Source of the DNA: an uncultured Chitinophagaceae bacterium
GTDB lineage: Bacteria > Bacteroidota > Bacteroidia > Chitinophagales > CAIOSU01
Direction: 5' to 3'
DNA length: 64,000 bases
NCBI GenBank assembly: GCA_964502525.1
Contig: CAZCXH010000002.1
Span: forward strand, 28,031-92,030
Program-made: the position numbers and the translations under genes
In this document: positions 1,093-26,417 of the stretch, piece after piece
Numbering within the stretch: the first letter of the stretch is position 1
How the letters are laid out: each line of letters opens with the position of its first letter
Notes under the pieces: generated by a model
What the model was told of the DNA's origin: nothing
What the model saw: the letters and a program-made list of their open reading frames with translations, nothing else
The model's database searches: none

Positions 1093-2271
1093 ATGAATAT
1101 CGCATCCCGAATGGCGAAAGTTATTTTGACTCTTCTTTTGCTGAATTTTCATGCTTACGCGCAGAAATTTCCAAACCTCGCCCTCACCCCGCCCATGGGC
1201 TGGAACAGTTGGAACTACTTTCATTGCGAGGGGCTGAATGAGCAAATGGTGCGCGAGATGGCTGATGCCATGGTGAGCAGCGGCATGAAAGATGCAGGAT
1301 ACGAGTACATCGTGCTGGACGATTGCTGGCAGACTGCACGAGATAAAGACGGCAATATCATTGCTGACTCAACAAAATTTCCTTCCGGAATGAAGGCGCT
1401 GGGCGATTACATCCATTCAAAAGGTTTGAAATATGGAATCTACTCCTGCGCGGGCAGAAAGACCTGCCAGGATCGCCCTGGCGGGCATCGTTATGAGAAA
1501 CAGGACGCGCAAGCCTACGCCTCATGGGATGTTGATTATTTGAAATATGACTGGTGCCACCATCGTTTTCTCAAATCGAAAAAACAATATGCGAAGATGC
1601 GCGATGCGCTCTACGAGGCAGGCCGTCCTGTGGTTTTCAGCATCTGCGAATGGGGTACCACCAAACCCTGGAAGTGGGGAAAAGACGTTGGACACCTGTG
1701 GCGCACCACGCGCGACATTGTTGACTGCTGGGATTGCAGCAAATACCTCGGCTACCTTGATGGCGTGATGAAAATTCTGGATCAGCAGACGGGGCTTGAA
1801 CAATATGCTGGTCCCGGGCATTGGAACGATCCCGACATGCTCGAAGTGGGCAATGGCGGCATGACCGAAAGCGAATACCGCGCCCACTTCAGCCTGTGGT
1901 GCATGTTAACCGCTCCGCTCATGGCGGGAAATGATTTGCGCAGCATGTCGCAAAGCACCATTGACATTCTGACCAATAAGGAAGCGATTGCCATTGACCA
2001 GGACACTCTTGGCGCGCAGGGTTTTAAGATCTCTGATGAGGGCGACTTTGAGGTTTGGGCGAAACGCCTCGCAGGTGACGAATGGGCGTTCTGTTTCCTC
2101 AATCGCGGATCAGCGTCTGTCAGCCGTGCCATTGACTGGAGCAAGTTTAATATCACGCAGTCTTACCGCATCCGTGATCTATGGAAACATGCCGATGCGG
2201 GAACCACCCGGTCTCCCTTTGAAATCACCGTGCAGCCGCATGATGTGGTGATGGTGAGGTTAAGAAATTAG
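1093..2271 (+). CDS. alpha-galactosidase, glycoside hydrolase family 27, secreted
   Basis: An N-terminal signal peptide is present, with the GH27 motifs PPMGWNSWN, YIVLDDCW and YLKYDWC. Confidence 0.9.
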   Translation: MNIASRMAKVILTLLLLNFHAYAQKFPNLALTPPMGWNSWNYFHCEGLNEQMVREMADAMVSSGMKDAGYEYIVLDDCWQTARDKDGNIIADSTKFPSGMKALGDYIHSKGLKYGIYSCAGRKTCQDRPGGHRYEKQDAQAYASWDVDYLKYDWCHHRFLKSKKQYAKMRDALYEAGRPVVFSICEWGTTKPWKWGKDVGHLWRTTRDIVDCWDCSKYLGYLDGVMKILDQQTGLEQYAGPGHWNDPDMLEVGNGGMTESEYRAHFSLWCMLTAPLMAGNDLRSMSQSTIDILTNKEAIAIDQDTLGAQGFKISDEGDFEVWAKRLAGDEWAFCFLNRGSASVSRAIDWSKFNITQSYRIRDLWKHADAGTTRSPFEITVQPHDVVMVRLRN

Positions 2272-2279
2272 GTTCTCTA

Positions 2280-2924
2280 TTGAAACAGGAATTGCTGAGA
2301 GAATATGAATTTAACCCTGGGCGAATCAATGTCTTTTGGTTTTCCCTTTTGCTATTGATTCAAACAGTACGCGCGCAGCCTGATGCCATTTCAAAAGCGT
2401 TTCCTTTCGAATTATCAAAATTTACATGGGAGTCAGGAGTTGAGTATCTGTGGCCGGTTGAGCGGGAGCGCCAAATCCAAACTGTTTCTTTTAATACGTT
2501 CATTGGAAAAGAGTTCTTCAAAAAAATCCACTTGTCCCCTTATGGAGGAATCACTGCAACTTATGCATGGGGAAGCATCATCCAAACTGACGATACTTTT
2601 CAGGAAGTGGAATATGATAATGCCGCTTTTGGCGCAGGTCCCGTTTTCATGCTGCGCTTTGAGCCGCTCGTTTACAGGGGCTTCTCGCTCGGTGCGGACG
2701 CCAGCGGTGGAATTATTTTCTACACCAGCGATTTTCCTGCCGGAGGCGATTTCTACAATTTCATGTGGCGCATAGGCCCAACAGCAGCCTGGCGATTCAA
2801 CAACAAATATTCAATCAACGCGGGCTTCCGCTGGATGCACGTCTCAAACGGACAGGGGATTGGACGGCATAATCCATATTACCCCGCTCGGGGAATTTTC
2901 TTCAACTTTAGACGGTATTTCTGA
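2280..2924 (+). CDS. outer-membrane acyloxyacyl hydrolase / lipid A 3-O-deacylase (PagL)-like beta-barrel protein
   Basis: It has a signal peptide, alternating beta-strand pattern, the PagL-type WMHVSNGQG His-Ser motif and a terminal aromatic residue. The start codon is uncertain (TTG 2280). Confidence 0.6.
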   Translation: MKQELLREYEFNPGRINVFWFSLLLLIQTVRAQPDAISKAFPFELSKFTWESGVEYLWPVERERQIQTVSFNTFIGKEFFKKIHLSPYGGITATYAWGSIIQTDDTFQEVEYDNAAFGAGPVFMLRFEPLVYRGFSLGADASGGIIFYTSDFPAGGDFYNFMWRIGPTAAWRFNNKYSINAGFRWMHVSNGQGIGRHNPYYPARGIFFNFRRYF

Positions 2925-2985
2925 TCGGGTTTGATTTTCACTTCGTCATTCATTATATTCATTTCCCATAGTAGCGCAACAACAA

Positions 2986-3477
2986 ATGCCTGCCTGGATT
3001 TTTAAAAAATTTGAGGAACTTACCCCGCACGAATTGTATGACGCGCTTGCCCTCCGTCAGAAGGTCTTCATTGTCGAGCAACACTGCCCCTACCTCGATG
3101 CTGACGGCAAAGACAAGCAGGCGCATCACCTCCTCGCTTACGAAGGCAGCAGGCTGCTGGCTTATGCCCGCATTACGTTCCCTGGGGTGCGTTTCAGGGA
3201 AGTTTCTGTCGGACGCATCATCAGCGACCCGGGGCACCGGAGAAAAGGACTCGGAAAGAAAGTGACCGCCATGGGATTGCAGAAAATAAAAGAAATATAT
3301 GGTGATGTCCCCGTCCGCATTTCGGCTCAGAGCTATCTTGTTCCTTTCTATGAATCATTCGGGTTTGAGGCGGTTGGCAATGAATATGACGAGGATGGAA
3401 TTCCGCACCGGGAAATGGTCAGGATGGCGGATTCAGATGATGAATTGCTTTTTGAACCTATCTCAAAAATGCCATAA
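2986..3477 (+). CDS. GNAT family N-acetyltransferase (ElaA-like)
   Basis: ELTPHELYDALALRQKVFIVEQHCPYLDADGKD and the RRKGLGKK acetyl-CoA loop are present. Confidence 0.8.
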   Translation: MPAWIFKKFEELTPHELYDALALRQKVFIVEQHCPYLDADGKDKQAHHLLAYEGSRLLAYARITFPGVRFREVSVGRIISDPGHRRKGLGKKVTAMGLQKIKEIYGDVPVRISAQSYLVPFYESFGFEAVGNEYDEDGIPHREMVRMADSDDELLFEPISKMP

Positions 3478-3526
3478 TTGCAATATGATGCGGCAATCAA
3501 CCTGCGAAAATCAGCGGGAAATTATA

Positions 3527-3637
3527 CAGGTTTTCGAACTCGTACTGCATAGTACCCGATGGCATATCCTCCGAAGGAGTCCGGAGTCCTTCGGACCGAT
3601 CGCAATTCGTTTTTTACACTTGTTTCGGGATAATTAT
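3527..3637 (+). repeat. about 85-110-nt intergenic repeat, copy A (carries a 26-nt palindromic insertion)
   Basis: CAGGTTTTCGAACTCGTACTGCATAGTACCCGATGG...CCGATCGCAATTCGTTTTTTACACTTGTTTCGGGATAA aligns with 24639-24720. The extra TCCGAAGGAGTCCGGAGTCCTTCGGA lies at 3570-3595. Confidence 0.85.
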
Positions 3638-3657
3638 CCACTCGTCATTTCTCTTGC

Positions 3658-3665
3658 TACCTTTG
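3658..3665 (+). promoter_or_regulatory. -7 box TACCTTTG upstream of tag
   Basis: Exact TAnnTTTG match, with 7 nt between the box and the ATG at 3673. Confidence 0.45.
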
Positions 3666-3672
3666 AGATTAA

Positions 3673-4275
3673 ATGTCAAAGCAACTTACCCGTTGCCTCT
3701 GGCCCGGAACAAATCCGCTGATGATCGCCTATCACGACCGCGAATGGGGCCGTCCGAGCCATAACGATCGCAAGCTGTTTGAAGCCGTTGTGCTGGATGG
3801 CTTTCAGGCAGGGCTGAGCTGGAGCACCATCTTGAACAAGCGCGAAAACTTCCGCAAGGCATTCGACAACTTCGATGCGGAAAAAATTGCGCGTTACAAT
3901 TCCCGAAAGCTCAACGCTCTGATGAACGATGCCGGCATCATCCGCAACAAGATGAAGATTGAAGCTTCAGTAAAGAACGCCAAAACCTTTTTGAAAACAC
4001 AGGAAGAGTTCGGCAGCTTCGACAGATACATCTGGCAATTCACCGATCACAAAACAATTCATAACAAATGGGAGCACAGGAAGCAGATTCCCGCAAGCAC
4101 AAAAGAATCTGACGCCATGAGCAAAGACATGAAGCAAAGGGGGTTCGGCTTCTGCGGCACCACCATTTGTTACGCCTTCATGCAGGCGGTGGGCATGGTG
4201 AACGATCATCTGATGGATTGCTTTTGCTACAATCAGATAAGAGCATCATCCTATGATAATACATCTGATGACTAA
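3673..4275 (+). CDS. tag: DNA-3-methyladenine glycosylase I
   Basis: RCLWPGTNPLMIAYHDREWGRP and the C-terminal zinc-site HLMDC pattern are present. Confidence 0.9.
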   Translation: MSKQLTRCLWPGTNPLMIAYHDREWGRPSHNDRKLFEAVVLDGFQAGLSWSTILNKRENFRKAFDNFDAEKIARYNSRKLNALMNDAGIIRNKMKIEASVKNAKTFLKTQEEFGSFDRYIWQFTDHKTIHNKWEHRKQIPASTKESDAMSKDMKQRGFGFCGTTICYAFMQAVGMVNDHLMDCFCYNQIRASSYDNTSDD

Positions 4276-4302
4276 TGTCGGTTTTTCGGAGGAGGCTCAA
4301 AC

Positions 4303-5073
4303 TTGCAAACTTCACTACCTTTATCCCGCGTGAATAAAAACCAGATCATCTACGGCAGGCACCCTGTTTTCGAAGCTCTGAAAGCCGGGAAGACATTTGA
4401 AAAAATCCTCTTGCAGCAGGGGATCGCCTCTCCTGAAATCAGATCCGTCAAGCAACTGGCGAGACAGATGGAGATTCCCCTGCAGAATGTTCCACCGCAA
4501 AAGCTGTACGCCATCACCGCGAAAAACCACCAGGGCGTGGTGGCTTTTCTTTCGCTGATACAATATTATAATGTGGAGGATGTGATGCTGAAGGCGTATG
4601 ACGAGGGGCGTGCACCCCTATTAATGGTGCTCGACAATATTACCGATGTGCGGAATTTCGGGGCGATAGCGCGCTCGGCAGAGGTGGCGGGTGTGGATGC
4701 GCTGGTGGTGCCGCAAAAAGGGGGCGCGCTGATCAATGAAGATGCGGTGAAAACATCGGCAGGCGCATTGAACCTGATTCACGTATGCAAGGCAAGGTCG
4801 CTGGCTGAAGCGGTTGATTACCTGAAACTCAACGGCATCCGTATTTTTGCGGCAGAGGAGCGGGCTGATAAAAAAGTGTTCGAGATGGATTTCACGATTC
4901 CCGCAGCGGTAATATTGGGTGCCGAAGGTGAAGGTATCGGCAAAGAGTTGATGAAAAAGGCCGATGCATCATTCAGCATCCCGATGAAGGGAAAAATCGG
5001 CTCGTTCAATGTTTCTGTGGCAGCGGGAATTGTGATGTATGAAGCAATGCGGCAACGTACCAGTGTCAAGTAG
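4303..5073 (+). CDS. rlmB: 23S rRNA (guanosine-2'-O)-methyltransferase RlmB / TrmH-SpoU family
   Basis: An N-terminal substrate-binding domain (YGRHPVFEAL) is followed by SpoU motifs (NFGAIARSAE, ILGAEGEGI, SFNVSVAAGIVMYE). Confidence 0.85.
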   Translation: MQTSLPLSRVNKNQIIYGRHPVFEALKAGKTFEKILLQQGIASPEIRSVKQLARQMEIPLQNVPPQKLYAITAKNHQGVVAFLSLIQYYNVEDVMLKAYDEGRAPLLMVLDNITDVRNFGAIARSAEVAGVDALVVPQKGGALINEDAVKTSAGALNLIHVCKARSLAEAVDYLKLNGIRIFAAEERADKKVFEMDFTIPAAVILGAEGEGIGKELMKKADASFSIPMKGKIGSFNVSVAAGIVMYEAMRQRTSVK

Positions 5074-5142
5074 CCGGTGCCCGGATCTCAGTTATCCGCG
5101 CACCGAGCATCAGCGCTGATGCGCTCAGTGCTCAGCGCTTGC

Positions 5143-6492
5143 TTACAGCGTATTGAACTCATCCATGGTCACCGTCTTGCCCTCCAGCGTCACTTTGCCC
5201 TTGATGAACTCGATAACTTTCCTGCCGGTCAATTCCTCATAGAAACGCTTCGCATGTTCTTCCTTTTTCAGCATTTCGTCAGCCAACCCTCCGATCATTT
5301 TGCCGCTCTCTTCATTATCGGGCAAACCATAATAGCTGCGGATAATTTCCTTTGCATGAGCTTTCATTTCACCGGCTGACACTTCCAGGTTGCTATCCTT
5401 TTTGATCTTACTGGAGATGAGCGTCCATTTCAGGTTTCTCGCAAAGCCATTGTATTCGTGCTCCACCTGTTCGCGCGACACGGGCTTTTCGCTGCTGTGC
5501 TGTATCCACCGCTTCAGGAATTCATCCGGCAATTGCACGTTCGTTTTTTCAAGAAATACATTGACGATGTCGCGGTTCAGCAGGTGTTCGCATTCTTTTT
5601 TGTAAGCTTCCTCCAGATCCTTTTTCAGCCTTTCGCGGAATTCTTCTGTTGATTTAACAGCGTCTTTTCCGAAAACCTTGTCGAACAGTTGCTGATTGAT
5701 TTCAGCCGGAATAACGCGGTTGATTTTTTCCAATTGAATCCGGAAGATTTTATTCAGATGAACATGCTCCTTTAATTTCAGGTAATGATGAATAATATCT
5801 TCCACACCGGCTTTTAATGATTTCATCAGCTCGGCATCAAGATGCTCGCCCGGTTTTTTACCGATCCATTGTTCGGCAACCGCATCCTCAAACTTTGCGA
5901 GGGGAACTGCCGTTGCATTCTGAACACCGCCTTCCTTCACGTTTCCGGTTTCGTCCAATTCAATAAACTTAACATATAATATGTCTCCGCTTGCAACCGC
6001 ATCTTCTGGATTGGTCATCTCTCCGTAGCGTTTCTGCAAGTATTCCGCATTCTTGTCAACAGCCTTGTCGTCAATTTTCACTTCATAGCGGGTTATTTTG
6101 GTATCAAGGCTCAGGGCTGTCACTTCTATCATAGGGTTTAATCCCAGATCGTAGGCGAACTCGTAGTTTTTCTGCTCATTCACTTCTAATTGGAGCTTTC
6201 CCCCATTTTCATGGGGCAAAGGACTGCCGAGAATTTCGATCTTGTTGTCCGTGAGATATTTGGTAAGCTCTTTGTTAATGAGGTTATTCAACTCTTCAGC
6301 AAGCACATCGTTGCCATAAAGCTTCTTAATGTGCCCAACGGGGACAAAACCCTTGCGGAAGCCTTTGATATCAGCCTTTTTGCTGAGTTTCTTCAATGAT
6401 TCGCTCACCAGCGGCTCATAGTCCTGCGGGGTTACATTGATTTTGAGCGTTGCGTTTTGGGCGTCAACGGTTTCCTTTGTAATTGTAGCCAT
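5143..6492 (-). CDS. tig: trigger factor
   Basis: 449 aa. The N-terminal ribosome-binding motif GFRKGFVP is present and the domain order is typical of trigger factor. Confidence 0.9.
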   Translation of the reverse strand: MATITKETVDAQNATLKINVTPQDYEPLVSESLKKLSKKADIKGFRKGFVPVGHIKKLYGNDVLAEELNNLINKELTKYLTDNKIEILGSPLPHENGGKLQLEVNEQKNYEFAYDLGLNPMIEVTALSLDTKITRYEVKIDDKAVDKNAEYLQKRYGEMTNPEDAVASGDILYVKFIELDETGNVKEGGVQNATAVPLAKFEDAVAEQWIGKKPGEHLDAELMKSLKAGVEDIIHHYLKLKEHVHLNKIFRIQLEKINRVIPAEINQQLFDKVFGKDAVKSTEEFRERLKKDLEEAYKKECEHLLNRDIVNVFLEKTNVQLPDEFLKRWIQHSSEKPVSREQVEHEYNGFARNLKWTLISSKIKKDSNLEVSAGEMKAHAKEIIRSYYGLPDNEESGKMIGGLADEMLKKEEHAKRFYEELTGRKVIEFIKGKVTLEGKTVTMDEFNTL

Positions 6493-18117: not shown

Positions 18118-18172
18118 ATCATCACCGAATTATCAAATTATCGAATCACCGAATCAGCAAATCACCGAATCA
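18118..18172. repeat. tandem 8-nt word array YAYCRAAT (reverse complement of ATTYGRTR), single arm, abutting the icd stop
   Basis: CACCGAAT TATCAAAT TATCGAAT CACCGAAT CAGCAAAT CACCGAAT. Confidence 0.8.
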
Positions 18173-19450
18173 CACCTCCACCAAATCCATGCTGTTGATG
18201 ACCTCCGTTCCAAACTCAGAACACTTCAGCAGCGTGGCTCCTTCCATGAGGCGATGGAAATCATAGGTAACTTTCTTGTTTGCGAAAGCCGTTTCCAGTC
18301 CTTTGATGATGAGGTCTTTCGCCTCAAGCCAGCCCATGTATTCCAGCATCATCGCGCCTGAGAGTATCACCGAACTGGGGTTCACCTTATCCTGACCGGC
18401 ATATTTGGGAGCCGTGCCGTGCGTGGCTTCAAAGATGGCAGCCCCGATTTCGTAGTTGATATTGGCGCCCGGAGCGATGCCTATTCCTCCAACTCCCGCA
18501 GCGAGCGCATCGGAGATATAATCGCCATTCAGGTTGAGCGTTGCCAGCACGGAATATTCCTGCGGTCTTAACTGAATCTGCTGCAGGAACGCATCCGCGA
18601 TGGAATCTTTAATGATCACCTTTCCTCCTTCAGTTGCCTGTTTCATCATCTTGTTCGCCTGCTCCGACCCCTTTTCCTGAACTATCTTATCATACTGTTG
18701 CCAGGTGAACACCTTGTCTCCGAATTCTTTTTCCGCCAGTTCATATCCCCATTTTTTGAAACCGCCCTCAGTGTATTTCATGATGTTGCCCTTATGCACT
18801 AATGTCAGTGAAGGTTTTTTCTGCTCAATGGCATACCTGAGGGCAGCTCTCACCAGCCGCTCAGTGCCTTCCTTTGAAACCGGCTTGATGCCGATGGATG
18901 ATGTTTTCGGGAAACGTATCTGGTTCACCCCCATTTCGTTTTGCAGGAAAGCAATGACCTTGTTCGCTTCCGGTGTGCCCGCATTCCACTCTATACCCGC
19001 GTAAATGTCCTCTGTGTTTTCACGGAACACCACCATGTCAATCCATTCCGGATGCTTCATGGGCGATGGGACGTTCGTGAAATACTGCACCGGGCGCACA
19101 CAGGCATAGAGATCAAGCTTTTGCCGCAAAGCCACATTGAGCGAACGGATGCCGCCCCCAACGGGCGTTGTCAAAGGACCTTTGATTGCGATGAGATACT
19201 TGGTGATGGCTTCCAGCGTTTCTTCCGGCAGCCAGTCGCCTTTCAGATTAAAGGCTTTCTCCCCGGCATAAACCTCCATCCATTGAATCTTTCGCTTGCC
19301 GTGATAGGCTTTCTCCACAGCGGCATCCAGCACACGCACCGATGCCGCCCAGATGTCGGGTCCGGTGCCATCGCCCTCTATAAATGGAATAACCGGGTTG
19401 TCAGGAACTTGCAACTTGCCGTTTTTGATGGTTACTTTTTCGCTAGACAT
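18170..19450 (-). CDS. icd: NADP-dependent isocitrate dehydrogenase
   Basis: [21 protein letters not shown] and NLNGDYISD motifs are present, with the 426-aa length typical of prokaryotic homodimeric IDH. Confidence 0.95.
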
Positions 19451-19566
19451 GGTTGATGGTTTTATGAATTATATAATTGTATGGCTAAATTACGGATTTC
19501 GGCAGAATGGAATGGACATGCGAGGTCATGCCCTGCTTTGATTATCTTTACAAAATATAGATTGAG

Positions 19567-19788
19567 ATGAAGCACGTAGTGGAAATTGATGACAAAAGCG
19601 AGGCTGGTAAACGGCTTGTCAGACATTTAAAATCCGTGGCGCAGCGCAATAAGACGGTAAATATCCTTACACGCTCATCCCTCCGGGCAAAAGAAGATGA
19701 TGCACTTGCCCGTATGATAAATGAAGGTTTGAAGAGCGGGATGACTAATAAGAACCGCGTTCTGAAGAAATTCGGCATCAAGCCATGA
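19567..19788 (+). CDS. putative antitoxin partner of the downstream RelE/ParE-family toxin
   Basis: The 73-aa ORF overlaps the toxin start by 4 nt (ATGA). No family was recognised by eye. Confidence 0.55.
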   Translation: MKHVVEIDDKSEAGKRLVRHLKSVAQRNKTVNILTRSSLRAKEDDALARMINEGLKSGMTNKNRVLKKFGIKP

Positions 19789-20051
19789 ATGTTGAGTTTA
19801 CTCACCGGTTTGAAAAAGAAACCGATGAGATTTTCGAACCGAAACTTAGGGAAAGGATCAAAAGCATAATTCAAGCAGTGCGCAATGCCTCATCTCCGCG
19901 CCAAATACCGCATCTCAAAAAGTTAAAGGGTTATCGAGAATTTTACAGGATCAGAGTAGCAGATTACCGAATCGGCATCAGGATAGAAGGTGACACGGTA
20001 ATATTTGCTGCATTTGGTTCAAGGAAAGATATTTACAGGAATTTCCCGTGA
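19785..20051 (+). CDS. type II toxin, RelE/ParE family
   Basis: 88 aa. KKLKGYREFYRIRVADYRIGIRIEGDTVIFAAFGSRKDIY matches the RelE/ParE core pattern. Confidence 0.85.
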   Translation: MNVEFTHRFEKETDEIFEPKLRERIKSIIQAVRNASSPRQIPHLKKLKGYREFYRIRVADYRIGIRIEGDTVIFAAFGSRKDIYRNFP

Positions 20052-20851
20052 TGCGAATAATAGAAAAACTTTTCATCATCAAAATTGGCGGTAACATCCT
20101 TGACGATGAACAAAAACTTCATTCATTTTTAAAAAATCTGGTTCAAGTTCAGGGGAAGAAAATTCTGGTGCATGGCGGAGGAAAGCTCGCCACTTCATTG
20201 AGCGCCAAACTTGGCATTGAAGCAAAAATGCACAACGGCAGGCGTATCACCGACTTGGAAACGGTGCGCGTGGTAACGATGGTGTATGCAGGCTGGATTA
20301 ACAAGAGCATCGTTGCGGAATTAAATTCACTGGGTGCAAATGCCATCGGACTTTCAGGAGCAGACGCGCAGCTTATTCCCGCTGAAAAAAGACCAGTGCG
20401 CGATATTGACTATGGTTTTGCCGGAGATATTTTGCAGGAAAAAGTGAATGCAAAATTCCTGGCTGAACTCGTTGCAACCGGTTCACTTCCCGTTATCGCG
20501 CCCATCACGGCTGACAGCAAAGGTCAACTGCTCAACACCAATGCCGACACGATTGCCTCGGCTTTGGCGGTGGCGCTTGCTGACAAGTATGAAGTGAATT
20601 TGATTTATTGCTTCGAGAAAAAAGGCGTGCTCCTTGATGTCAATAAAGACGATTCTGTGATAAGCGCGATGGATGAAAAACGGTTTGCTGAATTAAAATC
20701 GCAAGGTATCATTGACAAGGGTATGCTCCCGAAACTGGATAACGCTTTCGCTGCGCTGGCTCAAGGCGTGGAGCGCGTACTGATTGGTCATGCAGATGAT
20801 ATAATTTCATTGACGGAAAACCAACATGAAGGAACGCTCCTCCACAAGTAA
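20048..20851 (+). CDS. argB: acetylglutamate kinase
   Basis: KIGGNIL, VHGGG, NTNADT and amino-acid kinase fold motifs are present. The ATG at 20051 shares one base with the toxin TGA stop. Confidence 0.9.
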   Translation: MMRIIEKLFIIKIGGNILDDEQKLHSFLKNLVQVQGKKILVHGGGKLATSLSAKLGIEAKMHNGRRITDLETVRVVTMVYAGWINKSIVAELNSLGANAIGLSGADAQLIPAEKRPVRDIDYGFAGDILQEKVNAKFLAELVATGSLPVIAPITADSKGQLLNTNADTIASALAVALADKYEVNLIYCFEKKGVLLDVNKDDSVISAMDEKRFAELKSQGIIDKGMLPKLDNAFAALAQGVERVLIGHADDIISLTENQHEGTLLHK

Positions 20852-21959
20852 TTCCGTTCGCACTCCCCTCTCCACCGGAGAGGGGACGGGGGTGAGGCTT
20901 CTTGCAGAAGAAGCAATCCGGTTGCTCAAACAACTAATTGCCATTCCCTCTTTCAGCCGGGAAGAATCAGGCACTGCTGATTTGTTACAAAACTTTTTAG
21001 AGCAAAAAGGAATTCTTGTCAATCGCAAAATGAATAATGTTTGGGTAAAAAATAAATTCTTCGATGAGAAGAAACCCACGCTGCTGCTGAACTCGCACCA
21101 TGATACGGTAAAACCCAATTCTGCTTACACGCTGAATCCGTTTGAGCCGGTGGAGAAAGACGGCAATCTCTATGGGCTTGGCAGTAATGACGCTGGCGGC
21201 TGTCTGGTGTCGCTGCTTGCTGTGTTCCTGCATTTTTATTTGAAGGAAGATCTCACGTTCAATATCATTTTCGCAGCAACAGCGGAGGAAGAAATTTCGG
21301 GAGTGAACGGCATTGAATCCATCTTCAGTGAGTTAGGAAATATTTCACTTGCCATTGTTGGCGAGCCGACTCAAATGAATCTCGCTATTGCCGAAAAAGG
21401 ACTGCTTGTGCTGGATTGCATCGCGCACGGGAAACCCGGTCATGCCGCCCGCGATGAAGGGGATAATGCGATTTACAAAGCGCTCCGCGACATTGAATGG
21501 TTCAGAACTTTTCAATTTCCAAAAACATCAGACTTGCTTGGTCCGGTGAAGATGAATGTAACCGTGATTAAAGCAGGCACACAACACAACGTTGTTCCCG
21601 GCATGTGCGAGTTTGTAGCGGATGTGCGGCTCAACGAAAAATACACGCACGAAGAAATCCTGAGCATCATTCAACAAAATGTGCAGTGTGAAGTGAAGCC
21701 GCGCTCCCTGCGTATTAAGCCTTCCTCAATTCCAAAAGAACATCCCATTGTGAAAGCCGCTGAAAGCCTCGGCATGAAAACTTTCGGCTCACCGACCACA
21801 TCCGATCAGGCATTAATGAATTTTCCCTCCGTAAAAATCGGTCCCGGAGATTCCGCACGCTCGCACAGCGCGGATGAGTTTATTTATGTGGAGGAGATAA
21901 AAAAAGGGATTGAGGTTTATATACGGTTGATTGGTGCAATTACAGATTCCATCGTTTAA
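20826..21959 (+). CDS. argE: acetylornithine deacetylase-like M20 metallopeptidase
   Basis: LIAIPSFSREE, LNSHHDTV, SNDAGG and ATAEEE metal-ligand motifs are present. The true start is probably the in-frame GTG at 20892, downstream of a CCCCTCTCC hairpin repeat. Confidence 0.85.
   Translation: MKERSSTSNSVRTPLSTGEGTGVRLLAEEAIRLLKQLIAIPSFSREESGTADLLQNFLEQKGILVNRKMNNVWVKNKFFDEKKPTLLLNSHHDTVKPNSAYTLNPFEPVEKDGNLYGLGSNDAGGCLVSLLAVFLHFYLKEDLTFNIIFAATAEEEISGVNGIESIFSELGNISLAIVGEPTQMNLAIAEKGLLVLDCIAHGKPGHAARDEGDNAIYKALRDIEWFRTFQFPKTSDLLGPVKMNVTVIKAGTQHNVVPGMCEFVADVRLNEKYTHEEILSIIQQNVQCEVKPRSLRIKPSSIPKEHPIVKAAESLGMKTFGSPTTSDQALMNFPSVKIGPGDSARSHSADEFIYVEEIKKGIEVYIRLIGAITDSIV
20865..20897 (+). repeat. 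CCCCTCTCC hairpin element between argB and the probable argE start
   Basis: CCCCTCTCC-ACC-GGAGAGGGG is followed by ACGGGGGTGAGG. Confidence 0.75.
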
Positions 21960-22491
21960 GAACTATCATCCCGACATCCGAAGCGGAAAAGAGTATGTTC
22001 TCGCACTCATGTTTGATATGAATCAGTTGTGGGAGGAATTTATTTTCAGGTCTTTGAAGAGGTGCGCTGCTGAAACTGAGTTTACAGTTCACGCGAAAAA
22101 ACGCCACAAATACTGGTTTCCGGATTCGGGATATGGCAAGCGTCTGGAACCTGATATTCTGATTACGAAAGGCTCGGACAATATCATCCTTGACACAAAA
22201 TGGAAAAATGTCGAGGAGAGCGGAGCTGTGGGCGAAGACGACCTCAGGCAATTGTTCGTTTACAATTTGTACTTCGATGCTTCAAAAGCATTTTTGGTTT
22301 ACCCGGGAAAAAAAGGAAATATTCAGCTTACGGAAGGACAGTTCAACCGAAACTCCCGCGAGGAAAAAACAATAACTTTTGACCACAGGCATTTAAACGG
22401 AGGCATCATGAATGTTGACATTTTAACTGACAGCAAGTTGGATAAACGGATTGGCGACAAAATCCTCCAAAGGTTTTATAAAGCTGGATGA
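21931..22491 (+). pseudogene. truncated McrC-like restriction-system subunit (C-terminal PD-(D/E)xK nuclease half only)
   Basis: MNQLWEEFIF...LEPDILI...IILDTKWK...LRQLFVYNLYF matches the McrC C-terminal nuclease region. The N-terminal half and mcrB are absent, and the ORF start overlaps the argE 3' end. Confidence 0.6.
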
Positions 22492-22522
22492 AATCACGCA
22501 GATGTAAATCGTATAATTAATT

Positions 22523-22530
22523 TAGCTTTG
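22523..22530 (+). promoter_or_regulatory. -7 box TAGCTTTG upstream of the HicB-like gene
   Basis: Exact TAnnTTTG match, with 5 nt before the ATG at 22536. Confidence 0.45.
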
Positions 22531-22535
22531 TTCAC

Positions 22536-22718
22536 ATGAATCACAAGCATATCAAAATTGTAATTGAAAAGCACACGGACGGATACGTTGCTTATCCGGT
22601 TGGATTAAAAGGAGTTGAGGTGGGAGAAGGAAATACTTATAAAGAAGCATGGGCAGATGTGCAATCTGCTATGAAATTCCATATCAAAACCTTTGACAAA
22701 GGAGTCTTGGATAACTAA
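22536..22718 (+). CDS. HicB-like (UPF0150) antitoxin-family protein, orphan
   Basis: 60 aa. IVIEKHTDGYVAYPVGLKGV.GEGNTYKEAWADVQSAMKFHI matches the short HicB pattern. I found no HicA-like ORF adjacent. Confidence 0.65.
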   Translation: MNHKHIKIVIEKHTDGYVAYPVGLKGVEVGEGNTYKEAWADVQSAMKFHIKTFDKGVLDN

Positions 22719-22727
22719 ATTGTAATT

Positions 22728-22934
22728 ATGGACCTCTCATCAAAAAAACTTGAACTCCTTGACTGGCTCATGCACATCAATGATGTGAAACTGCTGCGGC
22801 AAATTGAAAAATTGAAGCAAAAGCTAACACCATCCGTAAATGAGCAGGCCGTGTTCGGGAGGCTGAAGGGGAAGATAAAAATGTCTCCCGATTTCGATAC
22901 TCCTTTAAGCGAGTTTAAGGAATACATGGAATGA
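22728..22934 (+). CDS. antitoxin (DUF2281-like) of VapC-type PIN toxin
   Basis: The 68-aa ORF overlaps the PIN gene start by 4 nt. The C-terminal FGRLKGKIKMSPDFDTPLSEFKEY motif is typical of PIN-associated antitoxins. Confidence 0.6.
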   Translation: MDLSSKKLELLDWLMHINDVKLLRQIEKLKQKLTPSVNEQAVFGRLKGKIKMSPDFDTPLSEFKEYME

Positions 22935-23305
22935 ACCTGCTGCTTGATACCCAGGCATTCCTCTGGTTTGAAAGCGGAGATAAGCGCATAACCGCTACGG
23001 TAAAGCAGGCAATTACCGAACCCGTCAATGTCAAGTTTATCAGCATGGCCGTGTTTTGGGAGATTGCCATCAAAAATTCCCTCGGCAAACTTGAGTTGCA
23101 TATTCCTTTTGATGACCTGCTCATGCTGAATGGCTACACGCATCCTCACATCACCGGAAGCCATTTGAAAGCCGTGCGCGCCTTGCCTTATCATCACCGA
23201 GACCCTTTTGACCGGCTTCTTATTGCACAAGCGATGCAAGAGAGCTTCGCTATGATAAGCGCTGACAAGCAATTCGATTCGTATGGAATAAAAAGGATTT
23301 GGTAA
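22931..23305 (+). CDS. vapC: type II toxin, PIN domain (VapC family)
   Basis: LLLDTQAFLW (first acidic residue), FISMAVFWEIAIK and DPFDRLLIAQA are PIN signatures. Confidence 0.85.
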   Translation: MNLLLDTQAFLWFESGDKRITATVKQAITEPVNVKFISMAVFWEIAIKNSLGKLELHIPFDDLLMLNGYTHPHITGSHLKAVRALPYHHRDPFDRLLIAQAMQESFAMISADKQFDSYGIKRIW

Positions 23306-23323
23306 CCTGCACAGGTATTTAAA

Positions 23324-24637
23324 ATGAAACTCTGGCAAAAACCCAATTATAAAGAAACCGGCAAATCAAAGGTGGTCGAGCAATTTACCGTAGGTGATGA
23401 CCGCGAGTTGGATTTGGTGCTGGCTGAATTTGATGTCATCGGCTCAAAGGCTCATGCGGAGATGCTGAGCAAGGTTGGTATTCTCACAAAAGAAGAAAAC
23501 AAAAAACTTCAGAAAGCGCTGGATGAGATTTTGCAGGAAATCAAAAAGGGAAATTTCAAGATTGGCGACAGCGTTGAGGATGTTCATTCGCAAATAGAAT
23601 TTATGCTCACGGAAAGAGTGGGCGAAGCCGGAAAAAAAATTCACACAGGCCGTTCGCGCAATGACCAGGCGCTGCTCGACATCAAGTTATATATCCGGCA
23701 TGAGTTGAAAGAAATCAGGAAGTCCGTTGTGCAGCTTTTTGACAAGCTTCTTTCATTGAGCGAAGTGCATAAAAACAAACTTCTTCCCGGCTACACGCAC
23801 TTTCAACTTGCGATGCCTTCTTCGTTTGGGTTGTGGTTTGCCGCCTATGCCGAAAGCCTTGTTGACGATATGGAGTTAGTCGTTGCCGCCTACCACCTTG
23901 CCAATAAAAATCCACTTGGCTCAGGAGCAGGCTATGGCTCTGCATTTCCGCTCGACAGAAAACTCACAACCACATTGCTGGGGTTTGAAACCATGAACTA
24001 TAATTCCGTTTACGCGCAGATGACACGCGGAAAGACGGAGAAAGCGATGGCAACCGCAATTGCGGCAATTGCCGCAACGCTTTCGAGATTTGCTTATGAT
24101 GTTACGCTCTACATGAATCAGAACTTCGGGTTCATTTCATTTTCCGATGAACTCACCACCGGCAGCAGCATCATGCCGCATAAGAAAAACCCGGACGTGT
24201 TTGAATTGCTCCGCGCAAAATGCAATCGTCTGCAGGCTGTGCCGAATGAGTTGACGTTGCTCACGAACAATCTCCCTTCCGGCTATCACCGCGACCTGCA
24301 GCTCACGAAAAACATTTTGTTTCCGGCAATCAAAGAAATCAAAGAATGTCTGAGCGTTACTCTTTTTGCGCTGAATGACATTCGCGTGAAAGACAACATT
24401 CTCGATGATGCGAAATACAACGAGTTGTTCAGCGTAGAGGAAATCAATAATGAAATCATCAGAGGAACTCCGTTTCGTGATGCGTATAAAATTGTCGGCA
24501 GAAAAATTCAGGAAGGAAAATTCAAGCCGGAGAAAAAGCTGAAACACACGCACGAAGGCAGCATCGGGAATTTATGCACTCGTGAAATCAGGAGGTGGAT
24601 GGAAAAAATTACATTGAGAATAGTATACCATCGGTAA
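23324..24637 (+). CDS. argH: argininosuccinate lyase
   Basis: HTGRSRNDQ, GYTHFQLAMPS and the GSSIMPHKKNPD signature of the fumarate-lyase superfamily are present. Confidence 0.95.
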   Translation: MKLWQKPNYKETGKSKVVEQFTVGDDRELDLVLAEFDVIGSKAHAEMLSKVGILTKEENKKLQKALDEILQEIKKGNFKIGDSVEDVHSQIEFMLTERVGEAGKKIHTGRSRNDQALLDIKLYIRHELKEIRKSVVQLFDKLLSLSEVHKNKLLPGYTHFQLAMPSSFGLWFAAYAESLVDDMELVVAAYHLANKNPLGSGAGYGSAFPLDRKLTTTLLGFETMNYNSVYAQMTRGKTEKAMATAIAAIAATLSRFAYDVTLYMNQNFGFISFSDELTTGSSIMPHKKNPDVFELLRAKCNRLQAVPNELTLLTNNLPSGYHRDLQLTKNILFPAIKEIKECLSVTLFALNDIRVKDNILDDAKYNELFSVEEINNEIIRGTPFRDAYKIVGRKIQEGKFKPEKKLKHTHEGSIGNLCTREIRRWMEKITLRIVYHR

Positions 24638-24638
24638 T

Positions 24639-24720
24639 CAGGTTTTCGAACTTGCACTGAGTAGTCCCCGATGGTGTATCCCGATCACAGTTCGTTTTTT
24701 ACATTTGCTTCGGGATAAAC
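24639..24720 (+). repeat. about 85-nt intergenic repeat, copy B (after argH)
   Basis: CAGGTTTTCGAACTTGCACTGAGTAGTCCCCGATGGTGTATCCCGATCACAGTTCGTTTTTTACATTTGCTTCGGGATAA. Confidence 0.85.
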
Positions 24721-24793
24721 TGATAATTACCTGTTAGCAACCGGGTATATCACGCGAGTTCATGAAATCGAAGCTCCCTGAGAAAGTGCTGCG

Positions 24794-25189
24794 TTAATCA
24801 CCTTTTTCCACAGGATATCCCGCTTTCTCCCAATCGGGATAGCCGCCCTGCATTTCCATTATGCTCCTGAAGCCTGATTTTTTCATTTGTTCAGCGGCTT
24901 TGCTGGCGCGGCCTCCCACGGTGCAATAGACAAGGTATGTTTTGGATGTATCGAGCTTGCCAACTTCACCTGCGAAGTCTTTGCCGTTGTAGTCAACATT
25001 CACCGCGCCCGGCAGATGGCCGGCACTGTACTCGCCCGGTGAGCGCACGTCCAAAATGACCACGCCAGGTTCTTCCATCTTTTGCTTGAATTGTTCCGGG
25101 GCGAGTTTGGTTTGGCTGGTGCCGCTCTGGCAGGCAAACAGAAGGGCTGATAATGCAGGCAGCAGCAGGCGAAGAAAGCGCTTGTTCAT
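24794..25189 (-). CDS. rhodanese-like sulfurtransferase domain protein, exported (lipoprotein-type signal)
   Basis: A signal peptide ending LLFAC is followed by the rhodanese active-site loop YCTVGGRAS. Confidence 0.85.
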   Translation of the reverse strand: MNKRFLRLLLPALSALLFACQSGTSQTKLAPEQFKQKMEEPGVVILDVRSPGEYSAGHLPGAVNVDYNGKDFAGEVGKLDTSKTYLVYCTVGGRASKAAEQMKKSGFRSIMEMQGGYPDWEKAGYPVEKGD

Positions 25190-25200
25190 TGATTTTTTCT

Positions 25201-25208
25201 CAAAAATA
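25201..25208 (-). promoter_or_regulatory. -7 box TATTTTTG upstream of the rhodanese gene
   Basis: The reverse complement of CAAAAATA matches, with 11 nt before the ATG at 25189. Confidence 0.45.
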
Positions 25209-25232
25209 TGAATGTGCGGGCAAACTTGCCGG

Positions 25233-26417
25233 CTACTGCCTCCAGGAGTTCAAAAGTGAATCAGCATGTATCTGTTCGTTGAGGTCAAGGAGCGGGAACA
25301 TCCGCGCCACATACAGGGGCATTCTCCGCGCAAGGTCAGCCAAATCATCATGGGGAGGCTGCTCATACGTTAACGCTATCTGATCGAACATCTCTTTGAA
25401 CTGCGGAGTGAATTGTTGCTTCAATCGGTAGGGCGCCACAATCCTGAAGTATTTGCTGCTGTTTCCCCTTTCGGCCGAAATTATTTCCGAGGTGTCCAAG
25501 CCCCAGGCGGTAAACGGAATACATGGGGAATCGTGAATCAGCAGCTTATAGGTGCCGAAAGTTTCAACGCTCACTTCGCCAAGCGAATGTTCCCGGGCAA
25601 GTTGAAAATATTTTTGCATGTCGAGCCATTCACCATCATGCCGGTAACGGATTCCAAAGAAATTATCCACCGGGTACCACTTTTTGTTATGCGGGTTTTG
25701 AAGAATATTAATCATGTGCCCCACGGCTATGGTCGCAAACCGGGGCACTTCCTCCGGAATCTTTCGCTTTCGGTTCGGGCGCATCGAATAGCAATATGAT
25801 TTGATTCCAAAATGCTTGTAGAACAGCACCGCATAATAACCGTGAAAACCGCAGGCGCCCGCCACGCTGTCGCTGTTATTGACATTATACAGGTATTCAA
25901 GGTCTATATGCTTCAGGACGTATGTTTTGCCGATCACTCTGTCAATGTTGTTTTTGGTTACGTCACCCGTCCTGATATTCTGATAGAGCCACGTGCTTAA
26001 AACATTCACGCTGTCGAACCAGTCCTTGCTGCGGGATAATTCAGAATTGATGCTCTTCAGAACTTCATCCCATGCGCGCTTCCTTTTTATGTCAGTAAAC
26101 TCCGGCATGATGGTGCCTGCCGGGCAGCGCCACTCCGACTTTGGCTGAGGCGCAGGCCTCGCAGCTTCGTTCGCTTCATTGAATGGTTTCGCAACTGAAT
26201 CAATTTCAATCGCGTCCGTGTCAGGCGCAATGTATGTCTGGTTATAGGGCTGCATTTGTCCGCTAAGCGGCAACTCCTTCTTGCGCTCTTCCGGCAAGCT
26301 TTGTTTCTGATGTGTCAAACGCTTTGCAATAAAGAAGCTGAACAGCAAGAGCGCCAGCACCAAAATCAGCTTCTTTGCGCGTATTGACATTGGAGTAAAT
26401 TTAGATGTTTTAAGCAT
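25233..26417 (-). CDS. membrane-anchored protein with possible transglutaminase-like Cys-His-Asp core
   Basis: It has an N-terminal TM helix. GACGFHGYY, VGHMINIL and WYPVDNFF are spaced like a papain/transglutaminase-fold triad. The function call is weak. Confidence 0.5.
   Translation of the reverse strand: MLKTSKFTPMSIRAKKLILVLALLLFSFFIAKRLTHQKQSLPEERKKELPLSGQMQPYNQTYIAPDTDAIEIDSVAKPFNEANEAARPAPQPKSEWRCPAGTIMPEFTDIKRKRAWDEVLKSINSELSRSKDWFDSVNVLSTWLYQNIRTGDVTKNNIDRVIGKTYVLKHIDLEYLYNVNNSDSVAGACGFHGYYAVLFYKHFGIKSYCYSMRPNRKRKIPEEVPRFATIAVGHMINILQNPHNKKWYPVDNFFGIRYRHDGEWLDMQKYFQLAREHSLGEVSVETFGTYKLLIHDSPCIPFTAWGLDTSEIISAERGNSSKYFRIVAPYRLKQQFTPQFKEMFDQIALTYEQPPHDDLADLARRMPLYVARMFPLLDLNEQIHADSLLNSWRQ

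Follow-up and report, generated by a model that had tools for sequence, protein, structure and literature searches.

Two recent accounts describe the closest counterparts of the locus considered here. Chromosomal type II toxin-antitoxin (TA) modules have been found to occupy "spots" between conserved genes, whose content varies between related genomes and from which deletion or pseudogenisation removes modules (Belot et al., Mol Biol Evol 2026, PMC13617665), and core defence hotspots framed by conserved genes have been described (Johnson et al., Nucleic Acids Res 2023, PMC10250203). Our locus lies in a stretch of 64,000 nucleotides (nt; hereafter the 64-kb window) from an uncultured Chitinophagaceae bacterium (GCA_964502525.1, contig CAZCXH010000002.1, positions 28,031 to 92,030 of the forward strand), in which TA pairs and the remnants of restriction and TA genes lie among the arginine biosynthesis genes argB, argE and argH. 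From sequence comparisons with relatives we consider it likely that the distal arg operon holds two turnover spots, the first (argF'/argB) bearing a selected ParE cassette and the second (argE/argH) a layered, eroded islet. At the first spot, an antitoxin/ParE cassette would have arrived before several of the sampled lineages split. At the second, the starting content would have been hicB-hicA together with mcrBC restriction genes; a vapBC cassette would then have displaced all of hicA and the final third of hicB; and lastly one illegitimate deletion, at 1 nt of microhomology, would have removed ~3.7 kb, its end lying one base past the argE stop. By analogy, the ParE/antitoxin and VapBC pairs are probably live type II modules, and mosaic divergence suggests that related genomes swap cargo through homologous recombination within the arg genes on either side.

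Coordinates given below are window positions, on the + strand unless stated, and L-numbers designate the related contigs and loci that were compared. Nine open reading frames (ORFs), all on the + strand, fill 19567-24637 with inter-gene gaps of 0-44 nt, and every ORF listed in a first-pass annotation of this DNA is present at its coordinates on that strand. The usual Bacteroidota order, argG-argC-argD-argF'-argB-argE-argH, is present in relatives (e.g. L001, L164, L169), and adjacent, co-oriented argB-argE-argH genes recur in about 150 related loci. The argE/argH gap is at most 250 nt in 44 of 68 Bacteroidota loci, the majority state, and the argF'/argB gap at most 150 nt in 93 of 111. Among species-representative genomes the best match to the argE product was in the Chitinophagales metagenome-assembled genome (MAG) L001 (84% protein identity), which places the window in that order; exact-sequence look-ups with the window argE and argH products gave zero matches, probably owing to differing start calls.

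Five lineages whose ArgH proteins are 83-90% identical have five different argE/argH contents. The junction is empty in L001, L085 and L086, members of the same clade in which argE and argH share a 4-nt ATGA overlap. L164 and L084 carry a 76-amino-acid (aa) ORF, a 1368-aa SprB/type IX secretion system (T9SS) protein, a 123-aa ORF and, with its stop overlapping the start of argH, a 120-aa RelE-type toxin. L083 holds 7.3 kb of cargo, of which Dcm methylase, Vsr endonuclease, DUF6339 and a 664-aa PADLOC candidate, PDC-M33A (E 6e-23), occupy L083 positions 1248-6463, together with a 150-aa mcrC remnant, hicB (77 aa) and hicA. In L169, L170, L081, L082 and L171 the content is orf86, mcrB (787-919 aa as called), mcrC (445 aa), hicB', vapB and vapC; the window has retained mcrC codons 270-445 (mcrC'), hicB', vapB and vapC. 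The first-pass annotation had read the locus as a small decayed defence islet inserted into argB-argE-argH. The core of that reading is borne out by the comparison, which recovered empty (L001, L085, L086), undecayed (L169, L170, L081) and intact hicB-hicA (L083) states; neither of the outcomes that the first pass had named as disproof was observed. The notion of one insertion is not, as two junctions with lineage-specific cargo are involved and the ParE pair is older, selected and not decayed. One insertion after the L001 split was considered and ruled out, as argH similarity pairs L001 with L164, which has other cargo. Insertions at argE/argH are recurrent in the phylum at large and varied in content, with "23S rRNA intervening sequence protein" four-helix-bundle genes, Bro-N, ORF6N/Rha with Fic, NUDIX, kinases and peptidases. 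Genes of the first kind (TIGR02436/PF05635) are found at argE/argH of other Bacteroidota (L051, L055, L072, L080) and, in this clade, at argC/argD (L001 3207-3578; L169 1386-1751).

The ancestor-like intact islet is that of L169 and L170, which share ~94% nucleotide identity with the window. L169, L170 and L171 (L081 likewise) encode an McrB with AAA_5 and McrB_lid domains, followed by a full PF10117 McrC. Aligned with L169, the window matches as far as one base beyond the argE stop codon and restarts at mcrC codon 270, a ~3.7-kb difference that comprises orf86, mcrB and mcrC codons 1-269; the junction (TTTAAG/AACTATC) has 1 nt (G) of microhomology. This alignment indicates that the loss is a single deletion by illegitimate recombination. 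argE itself was left unchanged, because L169, with its islet intact, has the same argE C-terminal tail; creation of that tail by the deletion is thereby ruled out. Also ruled out is a deletion driven by the hairpin repeats at argB/argE and mcrB/mcrC, as its end points lie elsewhere. No direct or inverted repeat, integrase or transposase was noticed at the cassette borders, at which no systematic repeat search was run.

The window apparently derives from a MAG, and two of its five small ORFs, of 73 and 60 aa, had no match in Pfam or in sequence searches of the PDB (for the 60-aa ORF, Pfam to E 10), both of which would be expected if the small ORFs were chance ORFs or annotation noise and the arrangement a metagenome mis-assembly. 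We regard this explanation as extremely improbable. The other three small ORFs (ParE, DUF2281 and PIN) exceed curated Pfam cut-offs, the remaining two have conserved homologues, and the same cassettes recur across several independent samples. Separately assembled contigs from other assemblies and other sequencing runs are 100% identical to the window across both critical junctions, L168 at icd/antitoxin and L177 from argE/mcrC' (the deletion junction included) to argH; the junctions are therefore not assembly artefacts.

The surviving mcrC' sequence is 94% identical to residues 270-445 of the L081 and L169 McrC proteins and carries the PD-(D/E)xK nuclease part. Its truncation, noted in the first pass, is evident from the profile alignment, in which only PF10117 positions 196-318 of 318 match. 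Homology searching with mcrC' reached six proteins and missed the 445-aa McrC, which was found through the cluster listing; in PADLOC, mcrC', full McrC and most of the cargo genes without a family match all went unrecognised. Codons 379-399 contain 18 of the 24 differences specific to the window copy, most of these 18 being synonymous or conservative; this suggests a gene truncated recently, with a patch brought in by recombination, and not long neutral decay.

In L083 the orthologue of the 60-aa hicB' gene is followed by hicA (PF07927, 3.7e-12), with argH next. The L083 HicB orthologue reaches E 0.0067 against PF15919, under the cut-off, and many of the 197 homologues of hicB' are called HicB-family antitoxin by NCBI and JGI. 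Full-length relatives measure 72-77 aa; the window protein consists of 53 native and 7 new codons. A structure model of hicB' (predicted local distance difference test, pLDDT, 82) has three strands and a helix, and Foldseek superposes it on the HicB of PDB 6g26 with a root-mean-square deviation of 1.5 A over 47 columns (probability 0.97; E 0.6, not significant). The window and L083 are homologous through mcrC', the spacer that follows it and the first 53 codons of hicB, with nucleotide identity of 77-80% for mcrC' and hicB, close to the 79-83% of the arg flanks. It ends at 22695 and restarts at a common GCACAGG before argH, from which it follows that a vapBC cassette (22696-23308) replaced the hicB 3' end and all of hicA. 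No HicA was found in the 64-kb window. Of the orphan HicB-like gene with its own box described in the first pass, the box is present as stated, the HicB assignment is drawn from the names of homologues and the HicA partner of the L083 orthologue, and the gene is itself truncated.

We take mcrC' and hicB' to be likely non-functional leftovers. One could suppose instead that both still work, mcrC' as a free-standing nuclease domain and hicB' as a HicB that neutralises a HicA encoded elsewhere, the two forming a minimal defence set with VapBC. The mcrC' frame does remain open over 176 codons without frameshift or stop, keeps a PD...DxK-like motif, and shows 15 synonymous against 9 non-synonymous changes, with a ratio of non-synonymous to synonymous divergence (dN/dS) of 0.09-0.13; hicB' is likewise unbroken in the window, L081 and L082. 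The low ratio is, however, mostly due to the intact copies entering the comparison and to the recombined patch. Neither an mcrB-like sequence nor hicA was detected in the 64-kb window, and mcrC' has lost its own start codon, the available ones being a TTG within argE and an ATG inside the remnant. hicB' carries two 1-nt deletions, both frameshifts, in L169 and L170. Moreover, in Escherichia coli McrBC the N-terminal part of McrC is needed to dock into the McrB ring, which also counts against a functional mcrC'. Retained function of this sort is accordingly very unlikely, and we retain the reading of both genes as remnants.

Divergence along the region is patchy. Between the window and L169/L170, vapBC has a single synonymous difference in ~120 synonymous sites, against synonymous divergence (dS) of 0.33-0.73 for argB, argE, mcrC' and argH (Fisher p 1e-9 to 1e-24 against vapBC), and a young tract spans 22483-23347. 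Because vapBC is near-identical, the flanks are diverged and the divergence is patchy, we conclude that homologous recombination among relatives has shuffled the cargo as well as portions of the arg genes. The vapC gene is 98% identical in L169 and L170; the vapBC pair as a whole has 6 non-synonymous changes and 1 synonymous change relative to these genomes, i.e. dN/dS of ~1 or higher, counts too small to tell relaxed from diversifying selection. Between 23360 and 24200 of argH, blocks of 15-24 and of 0-4 differences per 100 nt alternate against L169, L170 and L081, an alternation that indicates recombination within a housekeeping gene.

In three sampled lineages the first spot is held by a 73-aa/88-aa pair, which lies between argF' and argB in L001, L085, L086 and L164-L167. 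Relative to L001, dN/dS is 0.04 for the antitoxin and 0.06 for parE, and dN is comparable to that of the arg genes; on these grounds the sequences point to a maintained module under strong purifying selection, not a decayed one. As first described, the pair abuts argB, with a PF05016 toxin, a 4-nt ATGA overlap between its two genes and a stop/start overlap of parE with argB (GTGATG). The 73-aa family numbers 33 representatives at E <=1e-3 among 1.8 billion proteins; none of 30 members searched had a Pfam match, the family profile had no match in the PDB, and the window protein had none in NCBIfam. The 73-aa protein could not be assigned to ParD, Phd/YefM, RelB or other ribbon-helix-helix families, the best hit being a sub-threshold ParD (E 0.07). 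Two further contexts support the antitoxin role and the mobility of the pair. L176 encodes a 42%-identical antitoxin relative (72 aa) and a 49%-identical ParE (88 aa) between ABC-transporter genes, an unrelated context; and in L173-L175 (positions 3001-3800) a 48%-identical antitoxin homologue is followed by ~500 nt without a called gene and then by only the last 27 codons of a ParE homologue, an eroded toxin beside a retained antitoxin.

Upstream of the pair the operon is broken. Homology between the window and L001 opens exactly at the antitoxin ATG (19567), with a divergent icd upstream; argC, argD and argF' occur nowhere in the 64-kb window, and argG is not directly upstream either. The arg operon thus appears to be interrupted just upstream of the ParE pair in this genome, its upstream half having moved away, and the 116-nt spacer 19451-19566 is the sole non-coding DNA upstream of the antitoxin-parE-argB-argE string.

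The -7 motif of Bacteroidota promoters, familiar from Bacteroides and Flavobacterium, is TAnnTTTG. It occurs 25 times in the window against 38 expected from shuffles, and for at least 9 of these 25 a gene start follows within 60 nt (0.64 expected); because it is rarer than chance and enriched upstream of genes, we treat it as informative here. Its copies are concentrated 5-32 nt ahead of start codons, as if mRNA leaders were very short or missing and stray promoter boxes were selected against. The only exact copy on the + strand within 19300-24690 is that before hicB', which reads TAGTTTTG in L083 and is identical to the window in L081, L169 and L170; a metagenome scan with a 28-nt hicB promoter/start pattern returned zero matches. 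In the spacer upstream of the antitoxin gene, TATCTTTA, 17 nt before the ATG, departs from the motif at one position. No terminator-like hairpin was predicted on the + strand in 19300-24900, and no Rfam family was found in 19000-25300. Transcription probably runs through the cassettes, since the nine genes share one direction, are separated by 0-44 nt and lack predicted terminators. With the upstream half of the operon gone, argB-argE would be transcribed from the 116-nt spacer or from inside the ParE cassette, whereas argH transcripts would probably come from read-through plus an internal promoter at the box before hicB'.

In type II TA operons a labile antitoxin neutralises the toxin, and the antitoxin or the TA complex normally represses its own promoter. 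Because such operons are normally autorepressed, regulatory coupling between the arg and TA genes is a reasonable expectation, and the dependence of argB and argH on cassette or TA-regulated promoters that the first pass had proposed is plausible, in keeping with the gene layout, the lack of predicted + strand terminators and the single conserved promoter box. A stronger version would hold that the cassettes are kept because they supply promoters or translational coupling to argB and argH, tying arginine synthesis to TA autoregulation (e.g. through stress de-repression). Several features fit. Wherever the junction is occupied, argH is directly preceded, at 0-18 nt, by a co-oriented toxin gene of a TA pair, whether PIN (window), HicA (L083) or RelE-type (L164), and in L083 minus-strand genes separate argE from that pair, which implies that argH cannot use the operon promoter there. 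The box before hicB' and the 44 nt upstream of it are identical even where hicB' is frameshifted (L169, L170). The spacer before the antitoxin gene is the only non-coding DNA upstream of argB-argE in the window, and strong purifying selection acts on both members of the ParE pair. On the other hand, L001 and most Bacteroidota do without any argE/argH cassette, frequent replacement of the argH-adjacent cargo fits selfish turnover equally well, and the whole of 22483-23347 is young in each of the four genomes, so that identity of the promoter region there weighs little. We consider this explanation possible but unlikely; a little more doubtful still is its full form, in which the cassettes drive argB and argH, could not be deleted without arginine auxotrophy, and the serial RelE-type, HicBA and VapBC replacement reflects competition for a protected slot.

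Besides the unbroken mcrC' frame, a number of points weigh against the two-spot history. The order of events is a parsimony reconstruction over five sampled lineages, represented mostly by metagenome contigs. The antitoxin role of the 73-aa protein is putative, its basis being position and co-occurrence with the toxin; the structure model is helical but weak (predicted template modelling score, pTM, 0.36, too weak for a fold search), and its strand-helix-helix order offers at most a guess at a ribbon-helix-helix layout. The closest relatives, L169 and L170, lack the ParE pair, and the ParE of the window is closer to that of L164 (87.5% identity) than is argB (74%). The junction in these closest relatives is occupied by a 435-aa gene (L170 2143-3450; L169 3895-5202, broken by an N run), whose product had no match in Pfam, NCBIfam or PADLOC. 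Since L169 and L170 carry this gene and ParE is closer to L164 than argB is, argF'/argB also turns over, and the ParE pair may have come to the window either by vertical inheritance with later replacement in other lineages or by recombinational transfer. As to expression, no exact -7 box was found ahead of the antitoxin gene in the spacer 19451-19566, sigma-70-style promoter scanners are ill-suited to Bacteroidota promoters, and the promoters, read-through and TA autoregulation that we infer at this locus are read from sequence.

The features of the locus are collected in Table 1. Families were called with Pfam and NCBIfam/TIGRFAM profiles against curated cut-offs, and seven of the nine ORFs were assigned. 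ParE residues 3-84 align to PF05016 profile positions 1-89. The DUF2281-like/PIN pair recognised in the first pass exceeds the Pfam cut-offs in both members; vapB scores 48 bits against NCBIfam NF050009 (TA_VapB), under the cut-off of 60, and VapC residues 4-119 align to positions 2-118 of the 120 in PF01850, with acidic residues D6, E44, D91/D94 and D113 in the translation on inspection. vapB and vapC share a 4-nt ATGA overlap like that of the antitoxin/parE pair, and the distance of 18 nt between the vapC stop (23303-23305) and the argH ATG (23324) agrees with the earlier coordinates. As called mechanically, the mcrC' ORF runs from a TTG at 21931, within argE, to 22491. The true argE start is likely GTG 20892 rather than ATG 20826, to judge from homologues that mostly align from residue 23-26. 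The repeat at the argB/argE junction (CCTCTCC-ACC-GGAGAGGGG...GGGGGTGAGGCTTCTT) is present once in the window, lengthens the argE ORF by 22 codons and has a predicted RNA fold of -33 kcal/mol (z -3.3); related copies lie at the argG/argC and mcrB/mcrC junctions of relatives (L169 327-368 and 5983-6041; L081 809-844).

Table 1. Features of the distal arg operon and its upstream border (window positions).
Feature	Position	Strand	Basis or remark
icd (NADP-isocitrate dehydrogenase)	18170-19450	minus	NF005425, 736 bits
icd/antitoxin spacer, 116 nt	19451-19566		non-coding, between divergent genes
putative antitoxin, 73 aa	19567-19788	+	position and co-occurrence; family without a name, members ~71 aa
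ParE/RelE-superfamily toxin, 88 aa	19785-20051	+	PF05016, 38.0 bits (cut-off 23)
argB (acetylglutamate kinase)	20048-20851	+	TIGR00761, 193 bits; start GTG 20048 or ATG 20051
argE-type M20 ArgE/DapE-family deacylase	20826-21959	+	PF01546 and PF07687; maximal ORF from ATG 20826
GC-rich hairpin repeat	20858-20903	+	argB/argE junction
deletion junction	21959-21960		~3.7 kb gone relative to L169
mcrC remnant (mcrC')	21960-22491	+	codons 270-445 of 445-aa McrC; PF10117 (McrBC), E 2.7e-19
-7 box TAGCTTTG	22523-22530	+	5 nt ahead of the hicB' (orf60) ATG
hicB' (orf60), 60 aa	22536-22718	+	shortened orphan HicB-family antitoxin gene
vapBC replacement cassette, ~610 nt	22696-23308	+	borders from L083 alignment
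vapB-type antitoxin (DUF2281), 68 aa	22728-22934	+	PF10047, 29.4 bits (cut-off 26.5)
vapC (PIN toxin), 124 aa	22931-23305	+	PF01850, 44.6 bits (cut-off 23.6)
argH (argininosuccinate lyase)	23324-24637	+	TIGR00838, 353 bits

Taken across relatives, the locus offers a stepwise natural record of the entry, replacement and decay of TA and restriction genes, with empty, intact, swapped, truncated and frameshifted states side by side. It is unusual in that the turnover takes place inside an essential biosynthetic operon, with the cargo oriented with the operon and set against the next arg gene, and it raises the testable question of whether taking control of an essential neighbour's expression allows selfish modules to persist. 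For annotation, the 185-186-aa "McrC" and the 60-aa "HicB" found here should be read as remnants, not systems.

Set against the TA spots as portrayed in the material cited above (PMC13617665), the window shows the same kinds of change, namely vapBC in place of hicA, an antitoxin gene left orphaned and truncated, and lineage-specific cargo. It differs in that its spots are junctions inside one biosynthetic operon, with co-oriented cargo packed on the downstream arg gene by ATGA/TGATG overlaps, and in that TA and restriction genes share a spot, whereas in that study TA modules are reported to cluster rarely with defence systems. The core hotspots, as outlined in the corresponding source (PMC10250203), resemble the locus in that argE and argH frame variable cargo (mcrBC; Dcm-Vsr with the PDC-M33A candidate; TA pairs), but the islets here are much smaller (0-7.3 kb), intra-operonic, and found in an uncultured Chitinophagales clade. 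At the level of components, L169, L170 and L081 encode McrB and full McrC as in the type IV McrBC system of E. coli, of which the window keeps the C-terminal part of McrC; without mcrB and McrC residues 1-269, this part does not amount to a system. The links to HicAB of Burkholderia pseudomallei (PDB 6g26) are the HicB-named homologues, the HicA partner in L083 and the superposition of the model on HicB, whose E-value is not significant; Pfam HicB models do not match the window copy. Here, hicB precedes hicA and encodes a short form (~75 aa) without a DNA-binding domain, and the window copy is further reduced and has no hicA. The remaining pairs have the antitoxin gene first, 4-nt overlaps and toxin domains over Pfam cut-offs, in common with VapBC and ParDE/RelBE modules, yet the putative ParE partner stands outside the named antitoxin families. 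The components are ordinary families, and the locus documents well a process already known rather than a system of a new kind; what is specific to it are the intra-operon junctions, the overlapping co-oriented packing, the three TA families that have in turn held the argH-proximal slot, a range of intermediate states of unusual completeness, and an antitoxin family without a name.

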